In this document: positions 5,663-31,249 of the stretch, one piece after another | Numbering within the stretch: position 1 is the stretch's first letter | How the letters are laid out: each line of letters begins with the position of its first letter | Virus record (IMG/VR): IMGVR_UViG_3300002098_000029 | Coordinates: 1-64,000 of that record | Reading direction: 5' to 3' (one strand) | Length of the DNA stretch: 64,000 bases | Source of the DNA: an uncultured virus (IMG/VR IMGVR_UViG_3300002098_000029) | Lineage: Duplodnaviria; Heunggongvirae; Uroviricota; Caudoviricetes | The notes under the pieces: generated by a model | What the model saw: the letters and a program-made list of their open reading frames with translations, nothing else | Told to the model about the DNA's origin: nothing | The model's database searches: none | Position numbers and translations under genes: made by a program

Positions 5663-5720
5663 TAACTCATTGATTTTATTGAGTTTTTTTATTAAATCAA
5701 CAATAAGATTGATAATTAAG

Positions 5721-5748
5721 AAGGGAACCGAAAGGTTCCCTTTTTTTT
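5721..5748 (+). terminator. Intrinsic terminator after gp23
   Basis: AAGGGAACC-GAAA-GGTTCCCTT followed by T run. Confidence 0.9.
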
Positions 5749-5751
5749 ATA

Positions 5752-5798
5752 TATAAATACATATAATTCTTGACTTATTTTGGCAATTATGTTATAAT
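5752..5798 (+). promoter_or_regulatory. Late promoter (5752-5759) plus sigma70-like promoter for the endonuclease gene
   Basis: TATAAATA; TTGACT(5770)-17 nt-TATAAT(5793). Confidence 0.7.
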
Positions 5799-5805
5799 AT
5801 TCTTT

Positions 5806-6384
5806 ATGAAACCCACATACCTTTATATCAAAAAACATACCATAACTGGTTTAAAATACTTTGGTAAAACAACCAAAGAAGATCCAATTGCATACCTTGG
5901 TTCGGGTATTCATTGGAAACGACACATCAAGAAACACGGAGAGTTTATTGAAACAATCTGGTATCAATTATTTACTGATGAGAAATTGCTTACCGATTAT
6001 GCCACAAAATTCTCAAAAGAAAATAATATAACAGAATCTAAAGAGTGGGCTAATCTTAAAGATGAAAATGGATTAGATGGTGGTATGGAAAAAGGTTGGT
6101 GGTCGGAAGAACACTTAGAAAATAATAGACAAAAGGCTAAAGAACGATGGGCTAATGGAGTTTATGATGTTGAAAAACTTAGGCTTAGTCGCATTGGGTT
6201 TAAACAACCACAATCACAAAAAGACACATTGTCTAGAAAATTATCCAAAACATGGGAAATAACCAATCCATCCGGTGAAAAAATAATTATTAAAAATCTT
6301 AGAAAATTTGCAATAGAAAATGGATTAGACCAAGGAAACCTATCACGGGGTTCTTATAAAGGTTGGAAAGCTGTTAAAATTTAA
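5806..6384 (+). CDS. Free-standing GIY-YIG-type homing endonuclease
   Basis: PTYLYIK...LKYFGKT...YLGSG nuclease domain, C-terminal NLRKFAIENGLDQGNLS HTH-like module; ATG at 5806. Confidence 0.85.
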   Translation: MKPTYLYIKKHTITGLKYFGKTTKEDPIAYLGSGIHWKRHIKKHGEFIETIWYQLFTDEKLLTDYATKFSKENNITESKEWANLKDENGLDGGMEKGWWSEEHLENNRQKAKERWANGVYDVEKLRLSRIGFKQPQSQKDTLSRKLSKTWEITNPSGEKIIIKNLRKFAIENGLDQGNLSRGSYKGWKAVKI

Positions 6385-6978: not shown

Positions 6979-7044
6979 ATGGAATGATATGGAATGATAT
7001 GGAATGATATGGAATGATATGGAATGATATGGAATGATATGGAA
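6979..7044 (+). repeat. Perfect tandem repeat (ATGGAATGAT)x6 + ATGGAA
   Basis: Six exact 10-nt units ending at the uvsY start codon. Confidence 0.95.
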
Positions 7045-7473
7045 AATCTAGAGCAAATATTAAAAACTTGGGAATCGGATGCAGATATTGACCAGACCGA
7101 ACCTGGCAAAGAATTGTTAAAGATTCCTAAACTTCACAGTAAATACCTTGGTATACTCATTAAACACAAGATTGCTTCTAAGAAAGCCCATTTTGATTAT
7201 CTCCGTATGCGGAAGATTCGTTTGGATTATTATGGCGGAAGAATGGGACAGGAAGAATTGGAAGAATACGGATGGGAACCTTTTCAGTTTGTTCTTAAAA
7301 CAGACATCAATGCCTATCTCGAAGCCGATGCCAACCTGATTAAGTTGTTGGAGAAGAAAGTATATCATGAAGAAACTGTTGGTGTTTTGGAATCTATTAT
7401 GAATGAACTGAAACAACGGACTTGGCAACTCCGTGAATTTATTTCTTGGGAGAGATTTATTGGTGGACAATGA
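7039..7473 (+). CDS. uvsY: Recombination mediator
   Basis: IPKLHSKYL, YYGG, PFQFVLKTDINAYLEAD, RTWQLREFISWERFIGG. Confidence 0.9.
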   Translation: MENLEQILKTWESDADIDQTEPGKELLKIPKLHSKYLGILIKHKIASKKAHFDYLRMRKIRLDYYGGRMGQEELEEYGWEPFQFVLKTDINAYLEADANLIKLLEKKVYHEETVGVLESIMNELKQRTWQLREFISWERFIGGQ

Positions 7474-8203
7474 TATAGTAATCACTAAAAAGAATGAGGT
7501 ATATGCCAAACTTACTTGTGAACGGCATGTATTACAGGAACTATCAGAGCATTTTACATTCTTTGTTCCTGGTTACCAATTCGTTCCTGCTTTCCGAAAC
7601 AAAATTTGGGACGGCAAAATAAGATTATTACATTTACAAAGTTCAACAATATACCTAGGATTATTAGATTACATCGAACAGTTTGCCGAATCAAGAGGTT
7701 ATACTGTAGGTAACGAATTAAACATTGAGGATGAGTATTCATTATATCATGCCAAAAAGTTTATTAAAGAATTAAATATTCATGCTCGTGGAGAACCCAT
7801 AGAAGTAAGAGAACATCAAATCAATGCATACATTCATGCTATGCAAAAACGCCGAGCGTTACTAGTATCACCCACCGCCTCTGGTAAATCACTCATCATC
7901 TATCTAATTCATCGTCAGTTGTTGGAATACCAAGGTCTTAAAGGATTAATTGTTGTTCCCACTACTTCACTTTGTATGCAAATGAAATCGGATTTTGAAG
8001 AGTATTCATCACATAATGTGTATAATGTGGAAGATAATGTTAGTATTATAATGCAAGGATATACAAAATATCCAACAAAAAAAATAATAAAAATAACATT
8101 ATTGGATGGAACAATTAAAAAATATAAAGAACATGATGTGGTAAAAACTCAAAGAGGAAACATTTTAGCTAAAGATATTATTTCAAATGATGATATATTA
8201 TAA
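7463..8203 (+). CDS. uvsW: UvsW helicase fragment 1 (motifs I, Ia) with intein-like C-terminal tail
   Basis: GTG start overlapping uvsY; WDGKIRL, SPTASGKS, VPTTSL; stops before motif II. Confidence 0.88.
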   Translation: MDNDIVITKKNEVYAKLTCERHVLQELSEHFTFFVPGYQFVPAFRNKIWDGKIRLLHLQSSTIYLGLLDYIEQFAESRGYTVGNELNIEDEYSLYHAKKFIKELNIHARGEPIEVREHQINAYIHAMQKRRALLVSPTASGKSLIIYLIHRQLLEYQGLKGLIVVPTTSLCMQMKSDFEEYSSHNVYNVEDNVSIIMQGYTKYPTKKIIKITLLDGTIKKYKEHDVVKTQRGNILAKDIISNDDIL

Positions 8204-8206
8204 ATA
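8199..8206 (+). promoter_or_regulatory. Late promoter for the endonuclease; contains the fragment-1 stop codon
   Basis: TATAAATA, TAA at 8201-8203. Confidence 0.75.
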
Positions 8207-8239
8207 ATAGTTCCTACTACATCTTTAGTTAAATATTAT

Positions 8240-9001
8240 ATGGACACATTTAATCCAACCTATCTATACATAAAACAACACATTATAACCGGACTAAAAT
8301 ATTTTGGAAAAACAACAAAATCTGATCCATATAATTATTTGGGTTCTGGTAAAATATGGATTAGACATATTAAAAAGCACGGAAAACAACATGTAAAAAC
8401 TATATGGGTCAGTGAATTATTTTATAATAAAAATGATCTTATAAATTTTGCTTTAGATTTTTCCAAAAAAAATAATATTGTTGATTCGTCCGAATGGGCC
8501 AACCTGAAGGAAGAAAATGGATTGGATGGTGGAATATTACCAAAACAGTCATTAAATAATATTTCTAAATTATTAACAGGAAGAACCAAAGAAACCCACG
8601 ATTATATTAAAGAATCTTCTTTAAAAAAATCAAAAACAATGAAAGACCCCAACGGAAAATATCAAACTGAAGGCCGAAAAAAAATTAATCAATGGTTGAA
8701 TTCATTAACCGAGTATGATAGAAAAGAAAAATTAGGACATACTGTAACTCAAAAGCAAAAAGAAAAATTAAGTCGGGACAGAACCGGCAAAACTAAAGAA
8801 AATTGTGAACGGGTCAAAAAAATGTCCGAAACTAAAAAAGAGTATTATTCATCTTTAACTGAAGAAGAAAAAAAAGAAAAATTAGGACACTCAAAAGGTT
8901 CTCATTGGTACCACAATGATGAATTGAGATTGTGTAAAACATTCAAACCAAATAATGTGGCGGCCGGTTGGATTAGAGGCAAAAAAAAGTATGAAAATTG
9001 A
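8240..9001 (+). CDS. GIY-YIG-type homing endonuclease inside uvsW
   Basis: PTYLYIK...LKYFGKT...YLGSG; basic C-terminal repeats (GRTKE/GKTKE), HWYHN...GWIRG end. Confidence 0.87.
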   Translation: MDTFNPTYLYIKQHIITGLKYFGKTTKSDPYNYLGSGKIWIRHIKKHGKQHVKTIWVSELFYNKNDLINFALDFSKKNNIVDSSEWANLKEENGLDGGILPKQSLNNISKLLTGRTKETHDYIKESSLKKSKTMKDPNGKYQTEGRKKINQWLNSLTEYDRKEKLGHTVTQKQKEKLSRDRTGKTKENCERVKKMSETKKEYYSSLTEEEKKEKLGHSKGSHWYHNDELRLCKTFKPNNVAAGWIRGKKKYEN

Positions 9002-9803
9002 AAAAATTGAAATCTTAGAAGAAAGTCCTAGTATAATTATATCCACTTGGCAGTCATTATATAAAATGCCAAAAGAATATTTTGAACAGTTTGACTATGT
9101 GATTGGTGATGAAGCTCATTTATTCAAAGCACAATCACTTACCACAATTCTCACCTCTTGTATCAATGCCAAATACCGTATTGGTCTTACTGGCACGCTC
9201 GATGGCACCAAAACACACAAACTCGTATTAGAAGGTTTATTTGGTCCAGTTAAAAAGGTAATTACTACAAGAGAGTTAATCGACAAAGATCAGGTATCAA
9301 ACTTTGAAATTAAATGTTTGGTGTTAAAGCATTCGGATGAAATCTGTTTGAGAATGAAAGACAGCACCTATCCAGAAGAAATTCAATACCTGATTGCAAA
9401 TGAGGCAAGAAATAAATTCATTAAGAATCTTGCAGTTAGCTTAGGAAAAAACACTTTGGTACTATATCAAATGGTTGACAAACATGGCAAAATACTGTAT
9501 GATATGATTAAGAACACCGAGAAAATTGGTGAAAGAAAAGTGTTCTTTGTCCACGGAGGAACGGACACCGTAGATAGAGAAGAAATTAGAAGAATTATGG
9601 AATTTTGTAAAGAAGATACTATATTTTTAGATTTCGATGATTATGAAATAATACTCGATCCAAATGAACCTATAGATTTGGTTAATAAATTACAAAAAAA
9701 AGCTAGAGATATTACAGAAAATGATGATATTGATACCAGTATTCTTATAAATAATATACAGACATCAATATTAAAAGGTTATGTATGGAAAAAGAAAAGT
9801 TAA
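8991..9803 (+). CDS. uvsW: UvsW helicase fragment 2 (motifs Ib-IV) with intein-like head and tail
   Basis: ATG 8991 overlapping endonuclease stop; ISTWQS, GDEAH, GLTGT, FFVHGGT. Confidence 0.88.
   Translation: MKIEKIEILEESPSIIISTWQSLYKMPKEYFEQFDYVIGDEAHLFKAQSLTTILTSCINAKYRIGLTGTLDGTKTHKLVLEGLFGPVKKVITTRELIDKDQVSNFEIKCLVLKHSDEICLRMKDSTYPEEIQYLIANEARNKFIKNLAVSLGKNTLVLYQMVDKHGKILYDMIKNTEKIGERKVFFVHGGTDTVDREEIRRIMEFCKEDTIFLDFDDYEIILDPNEPIDLVNKLQKKARDITENDDIDTSILINNIQTSILKGYVWKKKS
9746..9753 (+). promoter_or_regulatory. Late promoter for HNH endonuclease
   Basis: TATAAATA 31 nt upstream of ATG 9785. Confidence 0.7.
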
Positions 9804-10663
9804 TGCAAATATTCCAGCTAAAATTAGGTAAGCCGGATAATGAAGAAAAATTACTGGAATATATCGTTTTTTGTTTAAATAAACATAACGATTACGAAGA
9901 TTACCACGAAAAACATCATATATTACCTAGAGCTGTTTTTCCTGAACACATAAAAGATGATTGGAACATATCATGTCTATCTTACGAGAATCATGTTTTA
10001 GGTCATTTTTTGTTGGCAGAAGCCTATTTAAATAGAAAATTATCTAGGACATTAAATTTTTTAAAAAATAAAACAGAAGATGAAGTTATAAAATTAAAAA
10101 AAATATTATCAGAAACCACCAAAAAATGGTGGAAAGAATTGACAGAAGAAGAATATGATGCTAGATGTTTAATGTATAGTGTAAGAATGAAAAAAATGAT
10201 GCAGAGCGGTTCAGAATTTCATAAAAAAGTGTGTGATGGTATAAATGAATATTATAAAAACAATCCACACAGAAAAGAAGAGCTAAAAAATTTCTTTAAA
10301 GATTTATGGAAAAATAAAACAAAAGAAGAATATGATGAATGGTGTTTAAATATGAAATGGGATGAAGAAAGAAGAACACAACACAAAAAATATATGGAAG
10401 AAAGATATCAAGATCCAAATTTTAAAGAATCATTTGATAAAAAAATGAAAGAAGTAAATAGTGATTTTAATAAAAGAAAAGATGCTAGTGTTAAATTAAA
10501 AGAAAAATGGAAAGATCCAGATTTCATTAATAAGATGAATAAAAGGAAACCGAGAAGTTCGGATGGTTCAAAATTGAAAGAAAAATGGAAAGATCCTGTT
10601 TGGAGAGCATATATGTTAAATCAAAGAAAAATCAAAGGAAAATTGAAAAATGAAACCAAATAA
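9785..10663 (+). CDS. HNH homing endonuclease inside uvsW
   Basis: EKHHILP...NISCLSYENHVLGHFLL; C-terminal repeats KLKEKWKDP x2. Confidence 0.85.
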   Translation: MEKEKLMQIFQLKLGKPDNEEKLLEYIVFCLNKHNDYEDYHEKHHILPRAVFPEHIKDDWNISCLSYENHVLGHFLLAEAYLNRKLSRTLNFLKNKTEDEVIKLKKILSETTKKWWKELTEEEYDARCLMYSVRMKKMMQSGSEFHKKVCDGINEYYKNNPHRKEELKNFFKDLWKNKTKEEYDEWCLNMKWDEERRTQHKKYMEERYQDPNFKESFDKKMKEVNSDFNKRKDASVKLKEKWKDPDFINKMNKRKPRSSDGSKLKEKWKDPVWRAYMLNQRKIKGKLKNETK

Positions 10664-10983
10664 AGTTAGTAAAGGGGGGAATGGAGCTATTATTGTTGCT
10701 TCGTTCGGTACATTTCTCCACCGGAATTAATATTAGAAACTTGCATAATATTATATTTGCTATGCCTACAAAATCAAGCATTCGAACTTTGCAAAGTATT
10801 GGTAGGGGGTTACGACAATCTGAAGGTAAAGAAATAGCCACTTTGTATGATATTGCCGATGATATGCGGTATAAGAAACATATCAACTTTACCTTGCGGC
10901 ATTTTGTGGAAAGAACCCGTATATATAATGAAGAGCAGTTTCCATTCAAGATGTATAAAATAGGACTAAAAAATGAATCTTAA
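10650..10983 (+). CDS. uvsW: UvsW helicase fragment 3 (motifs V-VI), with a 1-nt frameshift near 10713-10715
   Basis: ATG 10650 reads MKPNKVSKGGNGAIIVASFGTF; after one extra T the next frame reads STGINIRNLHN...QSIGRGLR. Confidence 0.82.
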
Positions 10984-11356
10984 TATTAAAATAGTCAGAT
11001 TACAGAATGGTGAAGATATTATGGGTAATGTTACTTCCCTTGATGTTGGTAAATTTAATGTTTCTGAACCTATGTCGGTTGGATTAGAATACCGTAATAA
11101 AGAAGCAGGACTAATAATGAATCATTGGTTGCCAGTACAACTTCTTAAAAAGAATGAAATCACCATAGAACAAAAAGATATTCTTGGAGTTTTGGAACCT
11201 AGTGAAGAATTCTGTGAATATTATTTAAATACTGTGGAAAAGATTAAAGAATTGCTTATTGCCAAGAACCTTGTGAATGATCTCGAAGAAGGTGAGATTG
11301 ATGAAATAATGGAAGCTTATGAAGATTTTAAAACTCATGGAGATACATTACATTAG
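10973..11356 (+). CDS. Conserved T4-like hypothetical (Sm-like fold likely)
   Basis: IKIVRLQNGEDIMG start; usual position between uvsW and gp55. Confidence 0.7.
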   Translation: MNLNIKIVRLQNGEDIMGNVTSLDVGKFNVSEPMSVGLEYRNKEAGLIMNHWLPVQLLKKNEITIEQKDILGVLEPSEEFCEYYLNTVEKIKELLIAKNLVNDLEEGEIDEIMEAYEDFKTHGDTLH

Positions 11357-11459
11357 GATTGGTTATATCGTTTCAAACCGGGACATAGAGAATAATATAC
11401 TCTTGTCAAGCGAAAGTCAAGCATTACTGTGGTAAATATAATAATATGAAAGAAATAAA

Positions 11460-12026
11460 ATGACAATACCAGTACCAGCAGCACCCGTACCTAAGAAAAA
11501 ACCCAAACAGTATGTAAATAATGCCGACTTTCTTAAAGCACTAATGGATTATAAAGAAGGTTGTAAACTTGCCACAAAGAATAAAACAGAACCTCCTCCT
11601 ATTCCTAATTATATTGGAGAATGTTTTATGAAGATAGCAGAAGGCCTATCACACAAACCTAACTTCATTAACTATACTTACCGTGATGAAATGATGTCTG
11701 ATGGTATTGAGAACTGCTTGATGTACTTCAATAATTTCAATCCAGAAAAATCCAAGAACCCATTTGCCTACTTTACCCAAATCATTTATTATGCCTTTTT
11801 ACGGAGAATCCAAAAGGAAAAGAAACAAACCTATGTAAAATACAAAGCTACCGAACAGATGGGTATTTTAGATGAGTTTGAAATGTTAGAGTTGGAAGAT
11901 GGTACCTCAATGCAATTTCAATTATATGATAATATTGCCGAGTTTATTGAGACCTATGAAACGGCAAAAGAGAATAAAAAAGCGGTAAAGAAGCCAAAAG
12001 GGATTGAAAAGTTCTTAGGAGAGTGA
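11460..12026 (+). CDS. gp55: Late-transcription sigma factor
   Basis: YVNNADFL, YIGECFMKIAEGLS, NPFAYFTQI. Confidence 0.96.
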   Translation: MTIPVPAAPVPKKKPKQYVNNADFLKALMDYKEGCKLATKNKTEPPPIPNYIGECFMKIAEGLSHKPNFINYTYRDEMMSDGIENCLMYFNNFNPEKSKNPFAYFTQIIYYAFLRRIQKEKKQTYVKYKATEQMGILDEFEMLELEDGTSMQFQLYDNIAEFIETYETAKENKKAVKKPKGIEKFLGE

Positions 12027-12213: not shown

Positions 12214-13296
12214 ATGAAAGTTTGTATTTTAGGTGACACACATTTTGGAATGAGAAATGACTCTATTTCTTTTTTGGATTATGGTGAAAAGTTTTATAAA
12301 GAAACTTTTTTTTCTTATTTGATTAAAAATAACATTAAAACCATCATTCAGGTTGGTGATTTTTTTGACCGTAGAAAGTATATTAATTTTTATACATTAA
12401 AAAGAACAAAAGAAATGTTCTTAAATAAATTGGTTGAGTATAATATTAATATGATCGTTTTAGCAGGAAACCATGATACTTACCATAAAAATACCAATCA
12501 AGTAAATTCACTCGACCTATTATTACGAGAATATGATAATATTACAGTTATTGATACCCCTCAAACTATACACTTAAACTATGATGATGTTGTTTCTGAT
12601 GTTTGTATTATTCCTTGGATTTGCGCAGACAACTACCAAAATTGTTTGTCCGAAATTAAAAATACTTCATCGGACATTTGTATAGGACACTTTGAGATTG
12701 CTGGATTTGCCATGCACCGAGGTATGCCAAACTATGAGGGATTAGACCGAAATATATTCAATAAGTTTGATACTGTATTTTCTGGTCATTACCACCACCG
12801 TTCACGTCAAGATAATATTGTTTATGTTGGAACACCAATGGAAATGACTTGGCAAGATTATAATGATCCTCGAGGTTTCCATATTTTCGACTTGGTTAAT
12901 AGAACCCTAAAATTTATTGAGAACCCAAATGTAATGTTCCATCGTATTACATATGATGACAAAGAAGAATCTATTACCGAAATTAATAACAAAGAATTGG
13001 CCAAGTTTGCCGGAACTTATGTTAAAGTTGTGGTATTAAACAAAACTAATCCCTATCTGTTTGATAAGTTTATGACAAAGTTATATGAAGTAAATCCAAT
13101 CGATGTTACCATTGCCGAGGACTTCACAGATTTTGATGTTGATTCTGATGAAGATTTGGTCAACCAAGCCGAGGACACCTTAACCATTATCAACAAATTT
13201 GTAGATGGTATTAAAGAAGAACACATTGATAATAATAAACTTAAAACAGTTTTGCGAGAACTTTATGTGGAAGCATTAAATTCTACAGATACCTAA
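12214..13296 (+). CDS. gp47: Recombination nuclease, Mre11/SbcD-like
   Basis: [23 protein letters not shown]. Confidence 0.95.
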
Positions 13297-13867
13297 AGAA
13301 GTTTTGAACGCTCATTTCTTTTTTATCGATAATTCGACACACCATAGTTTTCGGTTTACCTTTAAGTTTTTGAGAACGTTTCAATTTGGACTCAATACTA
13401 TGCTTTCTACCTAATTGACCATTTCTCATATTAATTAATGTTTGTTCATCTGGTTTAGGTCGGTTTAATTGCCACAATCTATTTTTTTCATTTGATTCAA
13501 AAGATTGTTTTTTGCCGTACATTGGATTACCTGAACCGATTCTTTGTTTAGACCATAGTTTTCTGGTCTCATCTTTAATTATAGGAGAATTATTACCATC
13601 ACCGCCATCCGTTTTATTGAGTAAGATTCCAGTACCTAAATCTTTTCTGCCATACCATCTAATCATTCTTCTTTCTAAAGCTAATGCACCAATGTTGGTT
13701 AAATTTTTTTCAAGAAAAACAATTTTAGATTTATCTTTTGGTACGGATATCCTACTGTGTTTTTTATATGCTCGGTTATCTTTACCTTTGCCAATATAAT
13801 AAGGTAAGTTTGTTTTTTTATTGATGTAGGCATAAACATAATAAATGCCGGAATATATACTTGACAT
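13283..13867 (-). CDS. GIY-YIG homing endonuclease with NUMOD3-like motifs
   Basis: YYVYAY...[30 protein letters not shown]. Confidence 0.88.
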
Positions 13868-13890
13868 GAGCTGTGTCCTTGTGTTATANT
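13861..13890 (+). promoter_or_regulatory. sigma70-like promoter facing gp46, overlapping the endonuclease start codon
   Basis: TTGACA-18 nt-TATANT with TG extension. Confidence 0.55.
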
Positions 13891-13938
13891 AGATGACATA
13901 GAGTNGGTGGATGCTAGTAACATCGTGACCTACACCTT

Positions 13939-13946
13939 TATTTATA
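13939..13946 (-). promoter_or_regulatory. Late promoter for minus-strand endonuclease
   Basis: TATTTATA on + = TATAAATA on -. Confidence 0.7.
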
Positions 13947-13975: not shown

Positions 13976-15691
13976 ATGATTATTTTCAAAACTATCCGAT
14001 GGAAAAACATATTATCTACGGGTAACAGTTTTACTGAAATCCGATTAAACAAATCTCCCAATACACTTATTGTTGGCAATAATGGCGCCGGCAAATCTAC
14101 TTTATTGGATGCTATTTGTTTTGGGTTGTTTGGTAAGCCGTTTAGAAAAATAAACAAACCTAATCTTTTAAACAGTATCAATAACCAAAACGGCATCGTG
14201 GAGATTGAGTTTCTTATTGGTAAAAAACAATATAAGGTGATTCGTGGTATTAAACCTAATATCTTTGAAGTGTATTGTGATGACAAATTGGCTGACCAAG
14301 ATGCTAAAGCAAAAGATTATCAGGAACATCTTGAAAAGTTTATTCTCAAATTAAATTTTAAATCCTTTACTCAAGTGGTCATTTTGGGATCTGCATCATT
14401 TGTTCCATTTATGCAACTATCTCCTGCGGATAGGAGAGCCATCATTGAGGATTTATTAGATATTCAAATTTTCTCCTCCATGAATGGTGTGGTCAAAGAA
14501 AAGATGGCCGCCATTAAAGATGGTGTTACCAAAACAAAATACGAAATGGAATTAACTTCTGAAAGAATTAATTTCCAAAAACAAAGTATTGAGGACCACA
14601 AAAATCGTAATGATGTGGAAATTGAAAAGAAAAAGAAAGAAATTACCACAAGTATAGACCAAACATTTACATTACAAAGAGATATTGAGTTAATTCAAAA
14701 ACACATTAATGTTCTTCAGAAAAAAATTGAAGATAAAATTTCTGTAGAAAAGAAAAGTAAGAAGTTGTTACAGTTAGAATCCAAAATTGAAACTAACATT
14801 AAGAAAAATGAAAAAGACATTGCTTTCTATGAAGAACACGACAACTGCCCAACCTGTAAACAACCAATCGATGGAGAGTTCAAACAAGACCAAGTCACAG
14901 AAAGAAAATCCAAAGTCAACACTCAACGGGAAGGCCTTACGGAAATTGCAACACAGATTGCTCAAGCAAACCAAAGAATAGAAGAAATACAGAATATCAA
15001 TAAACACATCAACGGACACAATAACGAAATTGTTAAACACAATTCAACCATTTCTGCCGTTAACAAATACATTAGTAAACTTCAAAATGAGATTGAAGAA
15101 TTAGCCAATCGTAAAGATAATCTTGAAGATGAAAATGCCAAACTAAAAGAATTAAAAGACCAGTTAACGGAGTTATTAACAAAACAAGAAGAACTATCAA
15201 CAGAAAAACAATATTTGGAGTTTGCTGGTTCTTTATTGAAAGATACTGGTATTAAAACTAAGATTATCCGTCAATACTTACCTATTATGAATAAGTTAAT
15301 CAATAAGTATTTGACTGCCATGGACTTCTTTGTGAATTTTAATATCAATGAGAACTTTGAAGAAACGATTAAATCAAGGCACCGTGATGAATTTGGTTAT
15401 GCTAATTTCTCAGAAGGTGAGAAGATGCGTATTGATTTGGCACTTTTAATGACTTGGCGTCAGGTTGCTAAGTTAAAGAACTCAACAAACACCAATTTGT
15501 TGATTTTGGATGAAGTATTTGATTCATCATTGGATGGTGTTGGTACTGAGGAATTTTTGAAACTGATTCATGAAATGGGATCTGACACAAATATCTTTGT
15601 TATCTCACATAAAGGTGACCAGTTATTTGATAAATTCAGGAGCATAATTAAATTTGAGAAGTATAACAATTTTAGTAGGATAGCAAAATGA
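13976..15691 (+). CDS. gp46: Recombination ATPase, Rad50/SbcC-like
   Basis: GNNGAGKS, CPTC hook, FSEGEK, LILDEVFD. Confidence 0.96.
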   Translation: MIIFKTIRWKNILSTGNSFTEIRLNKSPNTLIVGNNGAGKSTLLDAICFGLFGKPFRKINKPNLLNSINNQNGIVEIEFLIGKKQYKVIRGIKPNIFEVYCDDKLADQDAKAKDYQEHLEKFILKLNFKSFTQVVILGSASFVPFMQLSPADRRAIIEDLLDIQIFSSMNGVVKEKMAAIKDGVTKTKYEMELTSERINFQKQSIEDHKNRNDVEIEKKKKEITTSIDQTFTLQRDIELIQKHINVLQKKIEDKISVEKKSKKLLQLESKIETNIKKNEKDIAFYEEHDNCPTCKQPIDGEFKQDQVTERKSKVNTQREGLTEIATQIAQANQRIEEIQNINKHINGHNNEIVKHNSTISAVNKYISKLQNEIEELANRKDNLEDENAKLKELKDQLTELLTKQEELSTEKQYLEFAGSLLKDTGIKTKIIRQYLPIMNKLINKYLTAMDFFVNFNINENFEETIKSRHRDEFGYANFSEGEKMRIDLALLMTWRQVAKLKNSTNTNLLILDEVFDSSLDGVGTEEFLKLIHEMGSDTNIFVISHKGDQLFDKFRSIIKFEKYNNFSRIAK

Positions 15692-19879: not shown

Positions 19880-19887
19880 TATTTATA
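19880..19887 (-). promoter_or_regulatory. Late promoter 5 nt before the endonuclease ATG
   Basis: TATTTATA on + strand. Confidence 0.7.
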
Positions 19888-26573: not shown

Positions 26574-26647
26574 TGAGATATAGTGTAATGGCAGCACAGG
26601 TGACTTTGACTCACCTAGTATAAGTTCGAGTCTTATTATCTCTACCA
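26574..26647 (+). tRNA. tRNA-Gln(TTG)
   Basis: Cloverleaf, GGTGA-CTTTGAC-TCACC, TTCGA loop, CCA. Confidence 0.9.
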
Positions 26648-26648
26648 T

Positions 26649-26737
26649 GGAGGGTTATCCAGGCTGGGCCTGGCTCTGTCTTGAAAACAGGTGGACTGCG
26701 TGAGCGGTTAGAGTTCGATTCTGCTATCCCTCCTCCA
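26649..26737 (+). tRNA. tRNA-Ser(TGA)
   Basis: GGAGGG acceptor, long variable arm, CTTGAAA loop, CCA. Confidence 0.85.
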
Positions 26738-26813
26738 TATTGAAGCACATTGAAGCACAGTTCGACTGTTACCGCAATGCTACCGTTAGCGGCCGGTGAG
26801 TGTGCTTCAATAT
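26738..26813 (+). ncRNA. Long-stem spacer RNA 1
   Basis: ATATTGAAGCACA/TGTGCTTCAATAT closing stem with internal hairpins. Confidence 0.6.
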
Positions 26814-26900
26814 GGAAGATGTGTTGCAAGGTGCGACCGAAGTTTGCTAAACTTCCGTTCAGAAATGGGCTGATAGGTTCGATTCCTATATCTTCCTCCA
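26814..26900 (+). tRNA. tRNA-Ser(GCT)
   Basis: GAAGT-TTGCTAA-ACTTC, variable arm, CCA. Confidence 0.9.
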
Positions 26901-26901
26901 T

Positions 26902-26978
26902 GTGGGTGTGCAACTGAAAGGCGAGGTAGAGGATTGCAAATCCTTATTATGCAGGTTCGAATCCTGTCACCCACTCCA
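26902..26978 (+). tRNA. tRNA-Cys(GCA)
   Basis: GAGGA-TTGCAAA-TCCTT, U73, CCA. Confidence 0.9.
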
Positions 26979-26983
26979 AGATA

Positions 26984-27085
26984 TGTTGTACCAAAACAAC
27001 AGTATAAAAATAGTGCTTGTGTTATTCTGTGGTTGATGTATAATAATTGTTCTGTTGTAAATTGTTCTTTAAAAATTAAGTAGTA
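26984..27085 (+). promoter_or_regulatory. Second TGTTGT-N6-ACAACA palindrome, internal promoter-like sequence and boxA-like element
   Basis: Palindrome 26984-27001; TATAAT at 27039 with weak -35; TGTTCTTTAAAAATTAAGTAGTA at 27063. Confidence 0.6.
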
Positions 27086-27090
27086 ACAAT

Positions 27091-27165
27091 ACTGCTATCG
27101 ACTAACGGTTAGGTCAAGAGGTTTTCATCCTCTAAATCGGGGTTCGATTCCCCGTAGCAGTACCA
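27091..27165 (+). tRNA. tRNA-Glu(TTC)
   Basis: AGAGG-TTTTCAT-CCTCT, CCA. Confidence 0.9.
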
Positions 27166-27293
27166 ATATTGAAGTGTTTTGCTCATACTGATTAAAGAAA
27201 TTAGCTTGACTAGTTTTGGAGAATCAAGAAAACACGCCAGAGATTTTAGCAATTCGTCTGGCAGGAAGAGAAGCTACAAAGCACTTCAATATT
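27166..27293 (+). ncRNA. Long-stem spacer RNA 2
   Basis: AATATTGAAGTGTTTT/AAAGCACTTCAATATT closing stem; inner CTTGA/TCAAG and GCCAGA/TCTGGC. Confidence 0.6.
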
Positions 27294-27368
27294 GGTCTCG
27301 TCATATAATGGTTATTATGCTGGACTGTCTATCCGGATATGGGAGTTCGATCCTCCCTGGGACCGCCA
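27294..27368 (+). tRNA. tRNA-Asp(GTC)
   Basis: CTGGA-CTGTCTA-TCCGG, G73, CCA. Confidence 0.9.
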
Positions 27369-27383
27369 ATTAAGTTTTACTGT

Positions 27384-27461
27384 TGTACTCGAGCAAGCAA
27401 GGCGTATGCGCTCCGCTGTTAACGGAGAATGAGTTAGGTTCGATTCCTAAGAGTACAGCCA
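27384..27461 (+). tRNA. tRNA-Asn(GTT)
   Basis: CTCCG-CTGTTAA-CGGAG, G73, CCA. Confidence 0.9.
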
Positions 27462-27470
27462 AGTTTCAAT

Positions 27471-27554
27471 GCGTGAGATGTTCCAATGGTGGGACAGGAG
27501 ACTGTAAATCTCTGGCCTTACGGCAGGTAGGTTCGATCCCTACCTCACGCACCA
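27471..27554 (+). tRNA. tRNA-Tyr(GTA)
   Basis: GGAGA-CTGTAAA-TCTCT, variable arm, CCA. Confidence 0.9.
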
Positions 27555-27629
27555 AAGAATTGCGGAGAAAGTAACTACTTTAGGTATTCGAGCATAGGAG
27601 AGAGTTACAATGCGCCGCAACCTAACAAT

Positions 27630-27708
27630 CTGTGTGTAATGTCAGTCTGGTCAGACGGCTCGGTTTGGAACTGAGAGGACGGTGGTTCGAATCCATCCAC
27701 ACAGACCA
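27630..27708 (+). tRNA. tRNA-Pro(TGG)
   Basis: CTCGG-TTTGGAA-CTGAG, C1:G72, CCA. Confidence 0.9.
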
Positions 27709-27748
27709 ATAACAAAGTAAATTTTGTAGTAATAACAAAGTAAATTTT
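27708..27748 (+). repeat. 18-nt direct repeat AATAACAAAGTAAATTTT x2
   Basis: 27708-27725 and 27731-27748. Confidence 0.8.
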
Positions 27749-27763
27749 TAAAGGAGTAGTAAA

Positions 27764-27964
27764 ATGAAACCAAGAAATCCATTCGCCATATTGGTGAAGA
27801 AAAGGATGGCGGGCTCGCACCGCAAGAGCAATAAAGCTCTACGTAAGAAAGAAAAACAATCCAGGTGTGATGAAAATGGCAATCATATTCGGCTTTTACC
27901 CGAACTTTCAGAGTTCAAATCTCTGCGCCTGGACCAGTTTATATTAAAGCAAACTACCACTTAA
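27764..27964 (+). CDS. Small basic protein reading through tRNA-Lys
   Basis: AAGGAG SD; MKPRNPFAILVKKRMAGSHRKSNKALRKKEK. Confidence 0.55.
   Translation: MKPRNPFAILVKKRMAGSHRKSNKALRKKEKQSRCDENGNHIRLLPELSEFKSLRLDQFILKQTTT
27861..27936 (+). tRNA. tRNA-Lys(TTT)
   Basis: TTCGG-CTTTTAC-CCGAA, TTCAA loop, CCA. Confidence 0.85.
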
Positions 27965-28050
27965 TACATATATGTGGAGTCGTTCCGGAAAACCTTCCAC
28001 GGGTTACTTAGAAGGTTCGAAACTTCTAGGGTTAGTTTGCTTTAATATAA
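27939..28050 (+). ncRNA. Long-stem spacer RNA 3
   Basis: Perfect 18-bp closing stem TTATATTAAAGCAAACTA/TAGTTTGCTTTAATATAA. Confidence 0.6.
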
Positions 28051-28053
28051 TTT

Positions 28054-28128
28054 GGGCTGTTAGTGCTAATGGGAACACATCTGGTTTGCAACCAGAAATT
28101 GAGAGTTCGATCCTCTCACGGTCCACCA
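28054..28128 (+). tRNA. tRNA-Ala(TGC)
   Basis: G3:U70, TCTGG-TTTGCAA-CCAGA, CCA. Confidence 0.92.
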
Positions 28129-28135
28129 AGTTTAA

Positions 28136-28209
28136 TGCGGGTTGTAATAGATACCGCTCGGTCTCATAAGCCGATGTCGAAGATGGAGCATTACCATCGC
28201 CCGCAACCA
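28136..28209 (+). tRNA. Atypical tRNA-Met(CAT), initiator-like acceptor, reduced D arm
   Basis: TGCGGGT/GCCCGCA-A-CCA, TCGGT-CTCATAA-GCCGA, T loop AGCATTA. Confidence 0.7.
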
Positions 28210-28216
28210 AGTTTTT

Positions 28217-28292
28217 GCCCTTGAAACCTTTAATGGATGAGGTCCTGTTTTGTAAGCAGGAGAAGCAGGTTCGATTCCTGACTGGGGCACCA
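28217..28292 (+). tRNA. tRNA-Thr(TGT)
   Basis: CCTGT-TTTGTAA-GCAGG, CCA. Confidence 0.87.
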
Positions 28293-28295
28293 AGT

Positions 28296-28471
28296 TTTGT
28301 AAGTGTAGATGTTGAGAAATGATTTATAGGCATATAAATTTAAAGGGATAATTCGAGGCGCAAATTAAGGGCGTCATCTAGTATCAACTATTACTGCGTA
28401 CCTCTGTACCGGGCGCCCTAGTATTAACGGTTAAAATGACAGCGAATAAGTGAGGCGCTGTGGCTTACAAA
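28296..28471 (+). ncRNA. Unidentified ~175-nt spacer RNA 4
   Basis: TTTGTAAGT/GCTTACAAA closing stem, internal stems, no ORF. Confidence 0.5.
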
Positions 28472-28479
28472 TTTAATAT

Positions 28480-28554
28480 AGTAACGTAGCATTGAGGTAA
28501 TGCGCCACCTTCATACGGTGTCCCAAGTGAGTTCGATTCCCACCGTTACTACCA
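28480..28554 (+). tRNA. tRNA-Met(CAT), elongator-like
   Basis: CACC-TTCATAC-GGTG, CCA. Confidence 0.87.
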
Positions 28555-28561
28555 GTTTTAT

Positions 28562-28636
28562 GGGTCATTAGTAAAATGAATATTACGGAAGTCTACGGAA
28601 CTTCAGGTGGGAGTTTGATTCTCTCATGACCCTCCA
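28562..28636 (+). tRNA. tRNA-Arg(ACG)
   Basis: GAAGT-CTACGGA-ACTTC, CCA. Confidence 0.87.
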
Positions 28637-28642
28637 AGTTTT

Positions 28643-28717
28643 GCTCGATTAGCTGAGATGGATTAGCAACGTCTTGATAAGGCGTAGACGGTGGATCGTT
28701 ACCACCATCGAGTACCA
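28643..28717 (+). tRNA. tRNA-Ile(GAT)
   Basis: ACGTC-TTGATAA-GGCGT; T loop ATCGTTA; CCA. Confidence 0.85.
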
Positions 28718-28724
28718 GATCAGG

Positions 28725-28819
28725 CCCACAGGAGTCCTCGTGACTGTCAAACTTTCAACCTGTTAAAATAAAAGAAAGTGGGAGTTGCTAGACCTCCTTC
28801 AGTAGAAGCAAACTAGCAC
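28725..28819 (+). ncRNA. Unidentified spacer RNA 5 with two possible pseudoknots
   Basis: ACAGG/CCTGT crossing CTTTC/GAAAG; GGAG/CTCC crossing TGCTAG/CTAGCA. Confidence 0.5.
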
Positions 28820-28822
28820 TAT

Positions 28823-28896
28823 CCCTCGCAAGTGTTCCGGTAGCACAACGGTTTCCAAATCCGTTGGACGGGGTTCGATTCCCTGGCGGGGGGCCA
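28823..28896 (+). tRNA. tRNA-Trp(CCA)
   Basis: ACGG..TTCCAAA..CCGT, G73, CCA. Confidence 0.87.
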
Positions 28897-28916
28897 AATT
28901 GTAAAAAGGAGTTGTC

Positions 28917-29393
28917 ATGAAAAAGATAGATTTAGTAGAAGTTAAAAGATTCATTGAAGCACAATCTGAAGATACTAAAATTTATCTTGGTGCTGACTCT
29001 GAAAGATTTGAAATTAAAGGTGTATGGTACGCAGATTATACTCTTGCTGTTGTTGTTCACATTGATGGTTGCCATGGTTGCAAAATCTTTGGTGAAGTAT
29101 CAAGAGAAAGAGATTATGACCAAAAGAAAAATAAACCTTCAATTCGTTTAATGAATGAAGTTTATAAAGTTGCTGATTTATTTCAGGCATTATCTGACGT
29201 ATTGGAAGACCGTTATGTTGAAGTACATTTAGATATTAACCCAAATGAATTGTATGGTTCATCTTGTGTGGTTCAACAAGCAATTGGTTATATCAAAGGT
29301 ACCTGTAATGTTACACCTATGGTTAAACCAAAAGCGTTTGCTGCTTCATATGCGGCAGATAGATTAAAGTTTGTGTTAGCAGAAGCAGCATAA
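28917..29393 (+). CDS. RNase H-like protein (YkuK/DUF458-like)
   Basis: IYLGADS, RLMNEV, EVHLDIN, KPKAFAASYAADR. Confidence 0.8.
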   Translation: MKKIDLVEVKRFIEAQSEDTKIYLGADSERFEIKGVWYADYTLAVVVHIDGCHGCKIFGEVSRERDYDQKKNKPSIRLMNEVYKVADLFQALSDVLEDRYVEVHLDINPNELYGSSCVVQQAIGYIKGTCNVTPMVKPKAFAASYAADRLKFVLAEAA

Positions 29394-29400
29394 AGTATTT

Positions 29401-29473
29401 GCGGGTATGCACGAGGTGTGTCGCCAGCCTTCCAAGCTGTGTAGTAGGAGTTCGAATCTCCTTACCCGCTCCA
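29401..29473 (+). tRNA. tRNA-Gly(TCC)
   Basis: GCGGGTA/TACCCGC-T-CCA, CTTCCAA loop. Confidence 0.88.
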
Positions 29474-29479
29474 AACAAT

Positions 29480-29553
29480 GGTGTTGTTAATGTAATGGTT
29501 GCATACTTGTCTGTGAAACAAGGCGAGAGGGTTCGATTCCCCACTTCACCCCA
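29480..29553 (+). tRNA. tRNA-His(GTG)
   Basis: G-1, C73, CTTGT-CTGTGAA-ACAAG; two T:T mismatches in acceptor stem. Confidence 0.8.
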
Positions 29554-29564
29554 AGAAAGAGATT

Positions 29565-29795
29565 ATGTTTAAAGTTTATATAACAGGTAAAGATAATTTA
29601 CCTTACTCATTTGATTTTGAAGATATGAGTGAAGCACTACAAGCAACACAAGATTTTCGTAACAAAGGTTATGATTTTGTAACAATGTGTTCGGAAAATC
29701 CAAATTGCACTAGTTTACCAGGAGTTGATTCTGTTAAATCAGGACTTTTGTCAAATGGTGCAGAGTATGGATATGTTAAACGTAGATACAAGTAA
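29565..29795 (+). CDS. Hypothetical protein
   Basis: 76-aa ORF filling a tRNA spacer; FVTMCSENPN. Confidence 0.7.
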   Translation: MFKVYITGKDNLPYSFDFEDMSEALQATQDFRNKGYDFVTMCSENPNCTSLPGVDSVKSGLLSNGAEYGYVKRRYK

Positions 29796-29798
29796 TAT

Positions 29799-29872
29799 GC
29801 CTCGGTAGTTTAATGGTAGAATAGCGGTGTTACATACCGTTGATGAGAGTTCGATTCTCTAACGAGGTACCA
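29799..29872 (+). tRNA. tRNA-Val(TAC)
   Basis: GCGGT-GTTACAT-ACCGT, CCA. Confidence 0.88.
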
Positions 29873-29874
29873 AT

Positions 29875-29950
29875 GCAACTTTAGCTGATGTGGTCATAGC
29901 GGTGGTTTGAAGAACCATTGAACCAAGTTCGATCCTTGGAGGTTGCACCA
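29875..29950 (+). tRNA. tRNA-Phe(GAA)
   Basis: GTGGT-TTGAAGA-ACCAT, CCA. Confidence 0.9.
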
Positions 29951-29968
29951 AAATTTAGAAAGTTTATT

Positions 29969-31168
29969 ATGATATTAGATATTAAAAATGTAAAAATGTG
30001 GACTGGTGATATGGATATTGAGCAAGCAGCCCAAGATCAAATTCGTAACATCGCTGCTTTGCCAATTTTAGCTGGACACATGGCAATTATGCCAGATGTA
30101 CATATGGGTAAAGGTGCTACTGTTGGTTCAGTTATTCCAACTCGTAATGCAATCATACCAGCCGCAGTAGGTGTTGATATTGGTTGTGGTATGTGTGCTG
30201 TTATGACTAACTTAACTGCATCCGACTTACCAGATTCCTTAACATCATTGCGTAATAGTATTGAACGTGGAGTACCAGTAGGTTTTAATGAACATAGTCG
30301 TAGTTCAATTAAAGTAAAAGGTGCAGCTGCCGATAAATTACGCCAAGCTGAAATGAAAATGTTTCAACGATGGGATAAATTAGTATTAAAGAAAAAATTA
30401 GGTCGTGCTGATCCATATAAAATTGCAAATCAAATTGGAACTTTAGGAGGTGGAAATCACTTCATTGAAATCTGTTTAGATTCGGAAGACCGAGTATGGG
30501 TTATGTTACATTCTGGTTCCCGTGGTATTGGCAATCAAATTGGTACTGTTGCCATCGAAATGGCCAAAGAAATTGCTATTCGTGAACAACGTAAGTTAGT
30601 AGATTCTGATTTGGCTTGGCTAGATGAAGGCACTGCTGAATTTAATGCTTATATTGAAGCAATGCATTGGGCTCAGGATTACGCTATGCTTAATCGTGAT
30701 ACCATGATGCAAATTGTATTGGAAAATTTACGACACAAATTTCCAAAGATGAAAACTCTCGGAGAAATTGTAAACTGTCACCACAATTTTACTAACTTAG
30801 AAAACCATTTTGGTGAAGATATGTGGGTTACTCGTAAAGGTGCAGTTTCGGCTCGTGAAGGACAAATGGGAATTATTCCAGGTTCAATGGGTGCAAAATC
30901 TTTTATCGTAATGGGTAAAGGTAATCATGACGCCTATTGTTCTTGTTCACACGGAGCAGGTCGTAAAATGAGTCGTAATGCTGCAAAGAAATATTTTACA
31001 GTAGAAGATTTATCATTACAAACTATAGGTGTTGAATGTCGTAAAGACGATGGTGTTCTGGATGAAATTCCAGGTGCATATAAAGATATTGACCAAGTTA
31101 TGGATGCCCAAAAAGAATTGGTTGATATTGTTCACACTTTAAAACAAGTAATGTGTATTAAAGGTTAG
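29969..31168 (+). CDS. rtcB: RtcB RNA ligase
   Basis: MPDVHMG, VGVDIGCGM, GTLGGGNHFIE, HSGSRG, SHGAGR, DEIPGAYK; ATG 29969. Confidence 0.95.
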   Translation: MILDIKNVKMWTGDMDIEQAAQDQIRNIAALPILAGHMAIMPDVHMGKGATVGSVIPTRNAIIPAAVGVDIGCGMCAVMTNLTASDLPDSLTSLRNSIERGVPVGFNEHSRSSIKVKGAAADKLRQAEMKMFQRWDKLVLKKKLGRADPYKIANQIGTLGGGNHFIEICLDSEDRVWVMLHSGSRGIGNQIGTVAIEMAKEIAIREQRKLVDSDLAWLDEGTAEFNAYIEAMHWAQDYAMLNRDTMMQIVLENLRHKFPKMKTLGEIVNCHHNFTNLENHFGEDMWVTRKGAVSAREGQMGIIPGSMGAKSFIVMGKGNHDAYCSCSHGAGRKMSRNAAKKYFTVEDLSLQTIGVECRKDDGVLDEIPGAYKDIDQVMDAQKELVDIVHTLKQVMCIKG

Positions 31169-31175
31169 TGGGATA

Positions 31176-31249
31176 GCTCTTATAGTATAATGGCATTACA
31201 CATCCTTGGTAAGGATGAAACACAAGTTCAATTCTTGTTAAGAGCACCA
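31176..31249 (+). tRNA. tRNA-Thr(GGT)
   Basis: CATCC-TTGGTAA-GGATG, CCA. Confidence 0.9.

Follow-up and report, generated by a model that had tools for sequence, protein, structure and literature searches.

Why should a homing endonuclease gene that interrupts a phage helicase gene carry, between its own promoter and its start codon, a piece of that same helicase gene? The question is raised by the uvsW locus of an uncultured T4-like phage, carried on the first 64 kb (64,000 nucleotides, nt; the whole stretch analysed, hereafter the window) of the 76.6-kb viral metagenome record IMGVR_UViG_3300002098_000029. In the window, uvsW is present as three pieces interrupted by two endonuclease genes, each fragment having its own stop and/or start codon. 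A preliminary description had reported that the leader of the second endonuclease gene, which encodes an HNH protein, spells eight residues of helicase motif V, and had presented them as an operator that mimics the motif V copy resident in uvsW fragment 3. We report here that the copied motif V is of a type other than the resident one, that comparable copies occur in the leaders of two further nuclease genes and, as the larger result, that the locus houses a uvsW cassette of mobA-like build, in which a probable recoding site of a single base is conserved.

The letters and coordinates given earlier proved correct: the late-promoter-like box TATAAATA (9746-9753) is followed after 4 nt by ACA GAC ATC AAT ATT AAA AGG TTA, i.e. 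TDINIKRL (9758-9781), and the resident motif V, ACC GGA ATT AAT ATT AGA AAC TTG, stands at 10720-10743. The copy is indeed out of frame with uvsW fragment 2, since it lies in frame 2, that of the HNH open reading frame (ORF), and the fragment 2 ORF, including its cassette-derived tail (8991-9803), is read in frame 3. Most of what is presumably the 5' untranslated region of the HNH gene consists of this copy, which begins near the expected transcription start (the promoter being assigned by consensus only) and includes the Shine-Dalgarno sequence AAAGG (9774-9778), the ATG following at 9785.

The likeness to the resident motif V, on which the preliminary description relied, did not survive: it amounts to 16/24 nt, which is the chance level, and to 5/8 residues. 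The same best score of 16/24 is also reached in uvsW fragments 1 and 2, and the window contains, on both strands, 285 non-self matches of at least 16/24. Equally good matches to fragment 3 were obtained with 164 of 500 shuffled leaders and with 63 of 403 other 39-mers of the window; when only 64 nt surrounding motif V were compared, the figure was 26 of 1205. On these counts, the comparison with the resident copy is not significant. The outcome differs for endonuclease-free uvsW alleles, against which the likeness exceeds chance. TDINIKRL matches the TGINIKRL of such alleles (L018-L020) at 7/8 residues and is the sole 7/8 match among 127,954 six-frame 8-mers. With 2,168 reference uvsW 8-mers as queries, about five independent background loci of the window reach 7/8; the empirical P for the approximately 24 leader positions is about 1e-3, and it is lower if only a match to the motif at the cassette end is counted. 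At the nucleotide level, the copy is identical to the uvsW of S-TIM4 at 20/24 positions (our count), to 80 near endonuclease-free alleles at 11-19/24, and to the empty-site allele of the same population, found in two of the same runs, at 17/24 (our count). Judged by these sequence comparisons, 9758-9781 is a genuine uvsW-derived copy of motif V coding DNA, of the endonuclease-free-allele type and not of the resident type.

Copies of this kind are clear in three cassettes: that of the HNH gene at 9785, that of the GIY-YIG-like gene at 8240, and that of loci L012-L015, which have a GIY-YIG gene in place of the HNH gene at the same uvsW site. The distance from the box to the ATG is 31-33 nt in all of them. 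In the leader of gene 8240 (TATAAATA, 33 nt, ATG), the sequence IIVPTTSLV is identical at 9/9 residues to motif Ib of other uvsW alleles; the differences fall only at third codon positions, so that all nine codons are synonymous, and the best nucleotide match is 23/27, against 17/27 for the resident motif. This leader scores 8/8 twice, and no further 8/8 match was found in the window outside uvsW and the cassette tails. The possibility that 8204-8230 is a GIY-YIG family leader with its hairpin deleted was rejected in view of this uvsW origin. In L012-L015, the leader (TATAAATA, 31 nt, ATG) contains TTT TCC ACC GGA ATA AAC ATG, i.e. FSTGIN-M (7/8), and in L012 the ATG and the next codon also match uvsW (FSTGINMK versus FSTGINIK). 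The HNH and L012 leaders both copy the TGIN part of motif V. A doubtful fourth copy, KENNKYFK versus KENEKYFK in uvsW, is read at an HNH gene located at the first uvsW site in L033-L036, and overlaps the N-terminal helix of that nuclease. The expectation that such copies recur in homologous cassettes was borne out in part: analogous ones stand before gene 8240 and in L012-L015, and none was detected in LIMEstone1 or T4 mobA. A metagenome scan for further HNH homologues returned two loci, both duplicates of known contigs, and the sample of diverged HNH cassettes is small.

The window contains ten TATAAATA boxes, four of them 31-72 nt before endonuclease genes. An HNH-like ORF of 232 amino acids (MITIKNQLYLNRYLKFINSCKLR..) at 19874 on the minus strand has such a box (19880-19887) 5 nt before its ATG; counting this ORF, endonuclease-like genes lie behind 5/10 boxes. 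The box of the HNH gene at 9785 is kept in five nuclease-bearing loci (window, L003, L004, L009 and L010) and mutated in two lineages without the nuclease gene, namely L008/L011, where it reads TTTAAATA and five more changes fall within the 24 nt, and the deleted form of run X12, where TATAAACA replaces it (T>C at 9752).

In both window cassettes, the motif copied in the leader is also the outer edge of the block transferred with the cassette. The cassettes of the window and of the L004/L039 contig are 94-97% identical in nucleotide sequence and their uvsW genes just 72-75%, showing that the cassettes moved between phages. Compared with L039, the host uvsW of the window is about 55-70% identical per 24-nt bin until about 7938, and at least 95% identical from there on. 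The near-identity block of the first cassette starts at about 7938-7940, at KGLIVVPTTSL (motif Ib), 145 nt upstream of the cassette. The block shared by the HNH cassettes starts at about 9580-9593 and has its right edge inside motif V, the first difference from L003 being at 10738 and the divergence from L004 rising past 10725. In gene conversion initiated by a double-strand break, the stretch between the cut and the nuclease gene is always co-converted. Block edges are for this reason the best available markers of nuclease action and, from these tract boundaries, the copied motif is probably the site where each nuclease acts. The carriers of the first nuclease (window and L039) have SLCMQMKS after motif Ib, and 11 other distinct uvsW sequences have SLVEQ.. 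or similar; this could be self-protection or simple co-conversion.

The intron-encoded endonuclease I-TevI of the T4 td gene has an operator that is 15/20 identical to its homing site and overlaps a late promoter (Edgell et al. 2004, as relayed in PMC2988022); according to the same review passage, this operator is bound as well as the homing site and cut about 100-fold less. By analogy with I-TevI, we propose, giving the proposal an even chance of being right, that the leader copy of the HNH gene is recognition DNA of the nuclease kept as an autorepression operator. First, the promoter sequence resembles the target (7/8 codons; 17/24 nt), as the latter is placed by the tract boundaries. Second, the copy abuts the late promoter. 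Third, the location of a copy of the edge motif beside the promoter, in both window cassettes, fits an operator of the I-TevI type. Fourth, the two nucleases whose leaders copy the TGIN part of motif V, the HNH protein and the L012 GIY-YIG protein, have a C-terminal region in common (see below). Like I-TevI, the HNH gene has a target look-alike at its own late promoter, the identity being 15/20 there and 17-20/24 here. Unlike I-TevI, which is intron-borne, the present nuclease is a free-standing, gene-splitting HNH protein, and its copy starts shortly after the box and shares the reading frame of the ORF. For I-TevI, repression, binding and weak cleavage were demonstrated; for the HNH protein they are predicted.

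In the proposed mechanism, the nuclease would recognise motif V DNA in empty uvsW alleles and cut nearby, and the carrier would be protected by the extra base described below and by silent differences. The leader copy would be a second landing site, left uncut for want of a proper cleavage context; late in infection, when enough nuclease is present, the protein would occupy its own late promoter from about +1 to +24, thereby turning the gene off. A target allele is the probable source of the copy, which would have been acquired in frame and would also supply the ribosome-binding site. Of the operator mimic put forward in the preliminary description for an HNH nuclease, the presence of a real target-type copy at the promoter and its recurrence in other cassettes stand; the idea that the resident motif was copied falls. 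To our knowledge, autorepression through a target look-alike is proven for one homing endonuclease only, I-TevI. Another T4 endonuclease, I-TevIII, is an HNH enzyme. Because a putative operator was described for I-TevIII (mentioned in PMC2988022), an operator look-alike for an HNH enzyme is not a new idea. If the layout were general in two catalytic families, it would amount to a rule for how selfish genes limit their cost, and would offer phage annotation a cheap prediction of targets along with new sequence-specific nucleases.

Several observations weigh against an operator. The three clear copies and the doubtful one (L034) are all in frame with the ATG of their nuclease (chance about 1 in 27), a placement that in-frame capture of target DNA predicts and an operator does not. 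In LIMEstone1, whose distantly homologous HNH gene occupies the same uvsW site, neither TATAAATA nor a motif V copy was detected in the leader (best 5/8), and the T4 mobA leader has no copy of its target either (best 5/8). The two motif V copies (HNH and L012) overlap by about 15 nt and have 5-6 differences there (our count), so few shared nucleotides that the case for one common DNA-binding domain is weak. The 24-nt copy is conserved no better than its surroundings (25-29/30 per bin over 9580-9789 compared with L009), and its identity to the local empty-site allele is the modest one given above. Between the window and L039, leader 1 is identical at 40/41 positions and its gene at 89% of third codon positions (P about 0.05), a difference that does not decide the matter; the cassettes are young.

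The in-frame position, found in 3/3 clear cases, is what would be expected of a relic without regulatory function, the main rival reading, which we consider possible though on the whole doubtful. In this account, the nuclease ORF once stood in frame behind the motif V codons, a flank of about 24 nt was carried along by module shuffling, and the copy is now merely a spacer with a ribosome-binding site. The match of the L012 ATG and following codon to uvsW agrees with such an origin, as do the lack of extra conservation of the copy over its surroundings, the tail ends overlapping the leaders, which differ between cassette types, and the exchange of nuclease domains. Concerning the latter, residues 187-281 of the HNH protein form a repeat-rich C-terminal region in common with residues 130-228 of the L012 GIY-YIG protein (47% over 99 residues, E 3e-20), the nuclease domains not being shared; as read from these alignments, nuclease domains have demonstrably been swapped between cassettes. 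However, a relic requires that three independent pieces of 24-27 nt ended up behind the same box at 31-33 nt from the ATG. Furthermore, 8204-8230 copies a motif situated about 145 nt upstream of the left end of its cassette, so that there it is no junction scar. Finally, a relic would be bound by the nuclease anyway if it is the recognition sequence. Relic and operator are compatible: a captured piece of recognition DNA would have been an operator from the start.

It is improbable that the copy is the 3' arm of a regulatory hairpin and resembles motif V incidentally. Its core ATCAATATTA can pair with GATATTGAT in the tail (coding NDDID), thereby enclosing the late promoter, and 9713-9742 and 9756-9785 form an inverted repeat whose arms are 70% complementary and whose 13-nt spacer holds TATAAATA. 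In the minimum-energy fold, 9725-9734 and 9763-9772 form a stem of 10 base pairs, and hairpins were reported in the 5' untranslated regions of 15/16 such genes, 10 of them with TATAAATA, in the relevant part of Dassa et al. 2009 (PMC2677866). The fold has, however, an energy of -10.8 kcal/mol (z = -0.29), which 72 of 200 shuffles equal or better, and it leaves the Shine-Dalgarno sequence unpaired, its stem spanning 10 of the 24 nt only. Reading by eye revealed no comparable repeat in the L012 and 8240 leaders, and no stable hairpin that pairs the ribosome-binding site and has TATAAATA inside was found.

A chance resemblance, arising in AT-rich DNA that also holds a promoter and a ribosome-binding site, seems very improbable to us. 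It accords with the chance-level score against the resident copy, with the roughly five unrelated places of the window that reach 7/8 to some uvsW word, and with the frequency of I, N and K codons at 35% G+C; against it stand the empirical P, lower still for a junction-proximal motif, and the two further leaders with uvsW words at 8/8 (9/9) and 7/8. Hardly credible, too, is a short homology arm, by which the broken left end of a cut target (..GTFSTGIN..) would anneal upstream of the nuclease gene and prime copying: the copy does correspond to the sequence next to the right end of the cassette, motif V direct repeats flanking the segment from the nuclease gene to the host segment, but 24 nt at 17/24 to the local target are a poor pairing substrate, the motif Ib copy of the other cassette is left unexplained, and the expected fusion of uvsW to the nuclease without a tail was not seen in 12 cassette alleles or four runs.

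The HNH cassette spans about 1.1 kb (9602-10725, 1124 nt). Its left end, 9601/9602, was placed with empty-site contigs and with L121, an empty allele of the same host lineage that defines the insertion (..RRIME/IEND AIIVASFGTF STGINIRNL.., the slash being the insertion point). In run X12, an empty-site contig joins 9601 to 10726; in run X5, the loose end at 9601 continues as the empty allele. Contigs of independent runs break at the same cassette edges (the run evidence consists of assembled contigs). The parts follow each other in the order: tail, promoter and leader within the tail coding sequence, nuclease gene, MKPNKVSKGGNG start, AIIVASFGTF and one extra base. The tail of 66 residues (9603-9800) is in frame with fragment 2, the last 19 nt of its ORF are shared, in another frame, with the HNH ORF, and the new start MKPNKVSKGGNG overlaps the 3' end of the nuclease gene by 14 nt.

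A tail with the core motif AKDI..NDDI recurs behind fragment 1. This C-terminal extension 1 is assigned to the cassette and not to uvsW because it is identical to L039 at 113/117 nt, versus 468/651 for the host part of fragment 1, and because it aligns with the other tails. The tail module, of about 45 amino acids (a hydrophobic strand, then ..NE.V.LSN..K.AKDITENDDI..NWI), is joined in frame to upstream fragments at two sites of uvsW, and also in distant phages: 9603-9800 and 8084-8200 of the window, 2862-3050 of L002 and about 2030-2180 of L034. Its pattern resembles the T4 gp39 tail (L038, T4 gene 39 end), and all the downstream fragments start with MK.xK[IV]. The tails and new starts may be assembly tags for the split protein. 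In tblastn searches of phage records, the tail gave only matches with E of at least 3. Three other origins were considered for these parts and rejected. The tails are not recognisable as an intein remnant (no Pfam family at E up to 10; best match to a solved structure, Pvc8, E 0.77). A group I intron was dismissed, as 7000-11500 contains no Rfam match at E up to 1 and the fragments have their own stops and starts. A decayed uvsW C-terminus was dropped, the same module standing behind fragment 1 and at a different uvsW site in L033-L036.

The beginning of fragment 3 (MKPNKVSKGGNGAIIVASFGTF) is read in frame 3 and the remainder (STGINIRNL..) in frame 1; the two meet at ACA TTT C TCC (10710-10719). 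The extra base is present in 12/12 aquatic cassette alleles (window, L003, L004, L008, L009 and L011-L017) and, without any indel, in contigs assembled from four more runs, which belong to four studies. It is absent from the 80/80 nearest endonuclease-free alleles, and L018-L020, S-TIM4 and the LIMEstone1 fragment are also in frame. When TTTC is read as F, the family sequence GTFSTGINIRNL is restored. Where the window, L004, L008, L009 and L012 differ upstream of the join, the changes are silent in frame 3 (GTT/GTG, TCG/TCC, GGT/GGA, ACA/ACG/ACC); downstream, they are synonymous in frame 1, including the serine codons TCC/TCA/AGT. Both frames are under purifying selection around one conserved site, as in programmed +1 frameshifting. 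A restart of fragment 3 in frame 1, at ATG 10681 or TTG 10693/10696, was rejected since no start is conserved, ATG 10681 being ACG in L004. In 11/12 alleles TTT_C opens onto a CTC codon (4.4 per 1000), and the phage encodes tRNA-Phe(GAA) and tRNA-Leu(UAG), tRNA-Leu(GAG) being absent from its tRNA genes. Judging from these patterns, a +1 slip at UUU_C probably joins the two frames: tRNA-Phe would slip from UUU to UUC ahead of the infrequent CUC codon, thereby yielding a trans-frame protein with the junction ..SFGTFSTGINIR. Three points tell against such a slip: TTT_C is not avoided in the long ORFs of the phage (52 in-frame cases, three of them TTT_CTC); in L014, a decaying element, the extra base lies two codons earlier, at a non-slippery place; and no frameshift stimulator was found.

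The T4 mobA/gene 39/gene 60 mobile element, with its 50-nt translational bypass, was reportedly described by Bonocora and co-workers in 2011. In the extract of Manning and Atkins (bioRxiv 10.1101/2022.08.31.505936) on which we draw, this element comprises a C-terminal extension, MobA, an N-terminal extension with a homologous region, and the bypass, and the gene 60 insert protects against MobA. The uvsW cassette likewise has the extensions, an HNH gene of about 270-290 amino acids, a re-supplied host segment, out-of-frame overlaps and a frame-breaking recoding insert at its 3' end. The C-terminal extension overlaps the nuclease ORF by 19 nt here and 1-20 nt there, the N-terminal extension overlaps the nuclease 3' end by 14 nt here and 8-32 nt there, the recoding insert comes last in both, the lengths are 1124 nt here and 1097-1106 nt there, and both occur in forms whose nuclease gene is of the GIY-YIG type or has disappeared (mobA figures from the same extract). 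They differ in the host gene, uvsW here and Topo2L there, the extract stating that the element is exclusive to Topo2L and making no mention of uvsW, and in the recoding, a 50-nt hop there and a single base needing a +1 shift here. A relationship of the tails to the T4 gp39 tail is suggested by eye, as is a common MK.xK[IV] start; hhalign, run with eight tails, aligned 20 columns at E 0.013, with a probability of just 3.4%. By analogy with the gene 60 insert, the extra base would be a "savior indel", a concept set out in part in Atkins et al. (PMC5009743).

Among the titles and abstracts searched, none describes a uvsW split by a homing endonuclease cassette, and the systems closest to it each share some of its features. 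In Aeh1 mobE, a free-standing HNH gene, confined to late expression by a late promoter, also splits an essential gene, nrdA, into two expressed pieces with tails (Friedrich et al. 2007 and Gibb and Edgell 2007, as cited in PMC2677866, PMC2988022 and the bioRxiv preprint); as outlined there, it differs by a hairpin that hides the ribosome-binding site, which is unsupported here, and by having no recoding. The Dickeya phage LIMEstone1, in the annotation given in PMC3296691, has I-LimI, a homologous HNH protein (22% identity, E 1e-12), at the same uvsW place, with a homologous tail and a downstream fragment that starts with MKPTKINK; it is annotated there as a putative intron, and its downstream fragment is in frame without the extra base. 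T4 SegE is a free-standing GIY-YIG nuclease that also targets uvsW; in contrast to the present genes, it lies beside uvsW without splitting it, and the passage on it in PMC2988022 describes no operator. A resemblance to segE is also seen in L040, L048, L051 and L052, where GIY-YIG-like relatives lie some 2 kb ahead of uvsW motif Ib, like the 5806 gene of the window.

We suggest, tentatively, that uvsW of aquatic T4-like phages is host to a mobA-like family in which a savior base and UUU_C slip are combined with a target-copy operator of 24-27 nt for each nuclease. If true, no smaller counterpart of the gene 60 bypass than this single base would be known. If both features held, one could tell from the leader alone which DNA an uncharacterised free-standing homing endonuclease attacks. 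The cassette extends the mobA/gene 60 design to a second essential gene, and its putative 1-nt recoding is far easier to dissect than a 50-nt bypass.

Three allele states were found in the lake and freshwater runs: filled, empty (X12 and X5) and nuclease-deleted (X12 only). The filled form stands beside the empty allele in two runs and beside the deleted form in one. In the deleted form, 9790 is joined to 10577 with the loss of 786 nt between short repeats, and its depth is about ten times that of the nuclease body. Other nuclease-less derivatives are L016/L017, in which the tail runs on into the final nuclease codons, and L008/L011, which keep the tail and the new start. With filled, empty and deleted alleles all present in public metagenome runs, it is possible to follow in nature how the cassette spreads and decays.

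The gene order around uvsW is T4-like: uvsY (7024-7473), uvsW, a gp47-like phosphoesterase gene (12214-13296) and a gp46-like ATPase gene (13976-15691). The closest DNA matches in the phage collection are cyanophage uvsW genes, and none of the 155 matching phage records covers at least 80% of 7400-11000. The sequencing runs that contain the stretch are labelled mainly freshwater or lake metagenome, and no RNA run is among those listed. The features of the split gene are listed in the table.

Table. Features of the split uvsW locus and of its two endonuclease cassettes (positions in the window)
Feature	Position	Strand	Evidence or remark
uvsW fragment 1, whole ORF	7433-8203	+	ORF list, Pfam, S-TIM4 alignment
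Host-derived part of uvsW fragment 1, with the N-terminal domain and motifs I to Ib	7433-8083	+	Pfam UvsW_N (2.3e-16), DEAD, ResIII; alignment to intact S-TIM4 UvsW
Resident motif Ib, IVVPTTSL	7949-7972	+	Motif position
C-terminal extension 1 (..ITLLDGTIKKYKEHDVVKTQRGNILAKDIISNDDIL, stop), cassette-derived, in frame with fragment 1	8084-8203	+	Aligns with other cassette tails
TATAAATA late-promoter-like box, first endonuclease gene	8199-8206	+	33 nt before ATG 8240
Leader copy of uvsW motif Ib (IIVPTTSLV)	8204-8230	+	Same frame as ATG 8240
Homing endonuclease gene 1, GIY-YIG-like (Seg-like)	8240-9001	+	BLASTP to L012 GIY-YIG gene, E 9e-6
uvsW fragment 2 up to its tail: host part (motifs II to IV) preceded by the N-terminal extension MKIEKIEILEESPS (8991-9032)	8991-9602	+	phrog_9690 DNA helicase, 1.2e-55
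C-terminal extension 2 (FCKEDTIFLDFDDYEIILDPNEPIDLVNKLQKKARDITENDDIDTSILINNIQTSILKGYVWKKKS, stop), in frame with fragment 2	9603-9803	+	Kept in L008-L017, L033-L036, LIMEstone1
TATAAATA late-promoter-like box, HNH gene	9746-9753	+	31 nt before ATG
24-nt motif V copy, TDINIKRL	9758-9781	+	In frame with HNH ATG
HNH homing endonuclease gene, 292 amino acids	9785-10663	+	phrog_12434 HNH endonuclease, 1.2e-17
uvsW fragment 3 start, frame 3: N-terminal extension MKPNKVSKGGNG (10650-10685) and re-supplied AIIVASFGTF (10686-10715)	10650-10715	+	
TTT C with extra base 10716; putative +1 ribosomal frameshift site, last cassette feature	10713-10716	+	
uvsW fragment 3 continued, frame 1 (motifs V and VI, C-terminus)	10717-10983	+	
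Resident motif V, STGINIRNLHN	10717-10749	+	Inside fragment 3

The gene at 8240 has no Pfam or PHROG match of its own, and putative GIY and YIG motifs can be read in its sequence; 80 loci were retained of the 94 relatives found in viral contigs. A second class of GIY-YIG-like leaders (window 5700-5810; L040, L047-L055, L064 and L068) consists of a terminator hairpin, TATAAATACATATA(A/G)TT and an AT-rich spacer. On the minus strand, the GIY-YIG-like gene 13867-13283 shares a conserved leader (13865-13946) with many homologues (L042-L118); it reads (N)ATAAATA, a two-step hairpin, TCTAAC, AAGGAG, ATCAGC and ATG. Ten of the 11 predicted pairs of this hairpin show compensatory changes in 23 sequences, and hairpins with TATAAATA before such genes appear in the pertinent part of Dassa et al. 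2009 (PMC2677866). The window has three N in this leader, at about 13885-13905, one of them within the 3' arm of the hairpin. Further along, 26574-32890 contains 25 tRNA genes on the plus strand, among them three for tRNA-Met, two for tRNA-Gly(tcc), and those for tRNA-Phe(gaa) and tRNA-Leu(tag).

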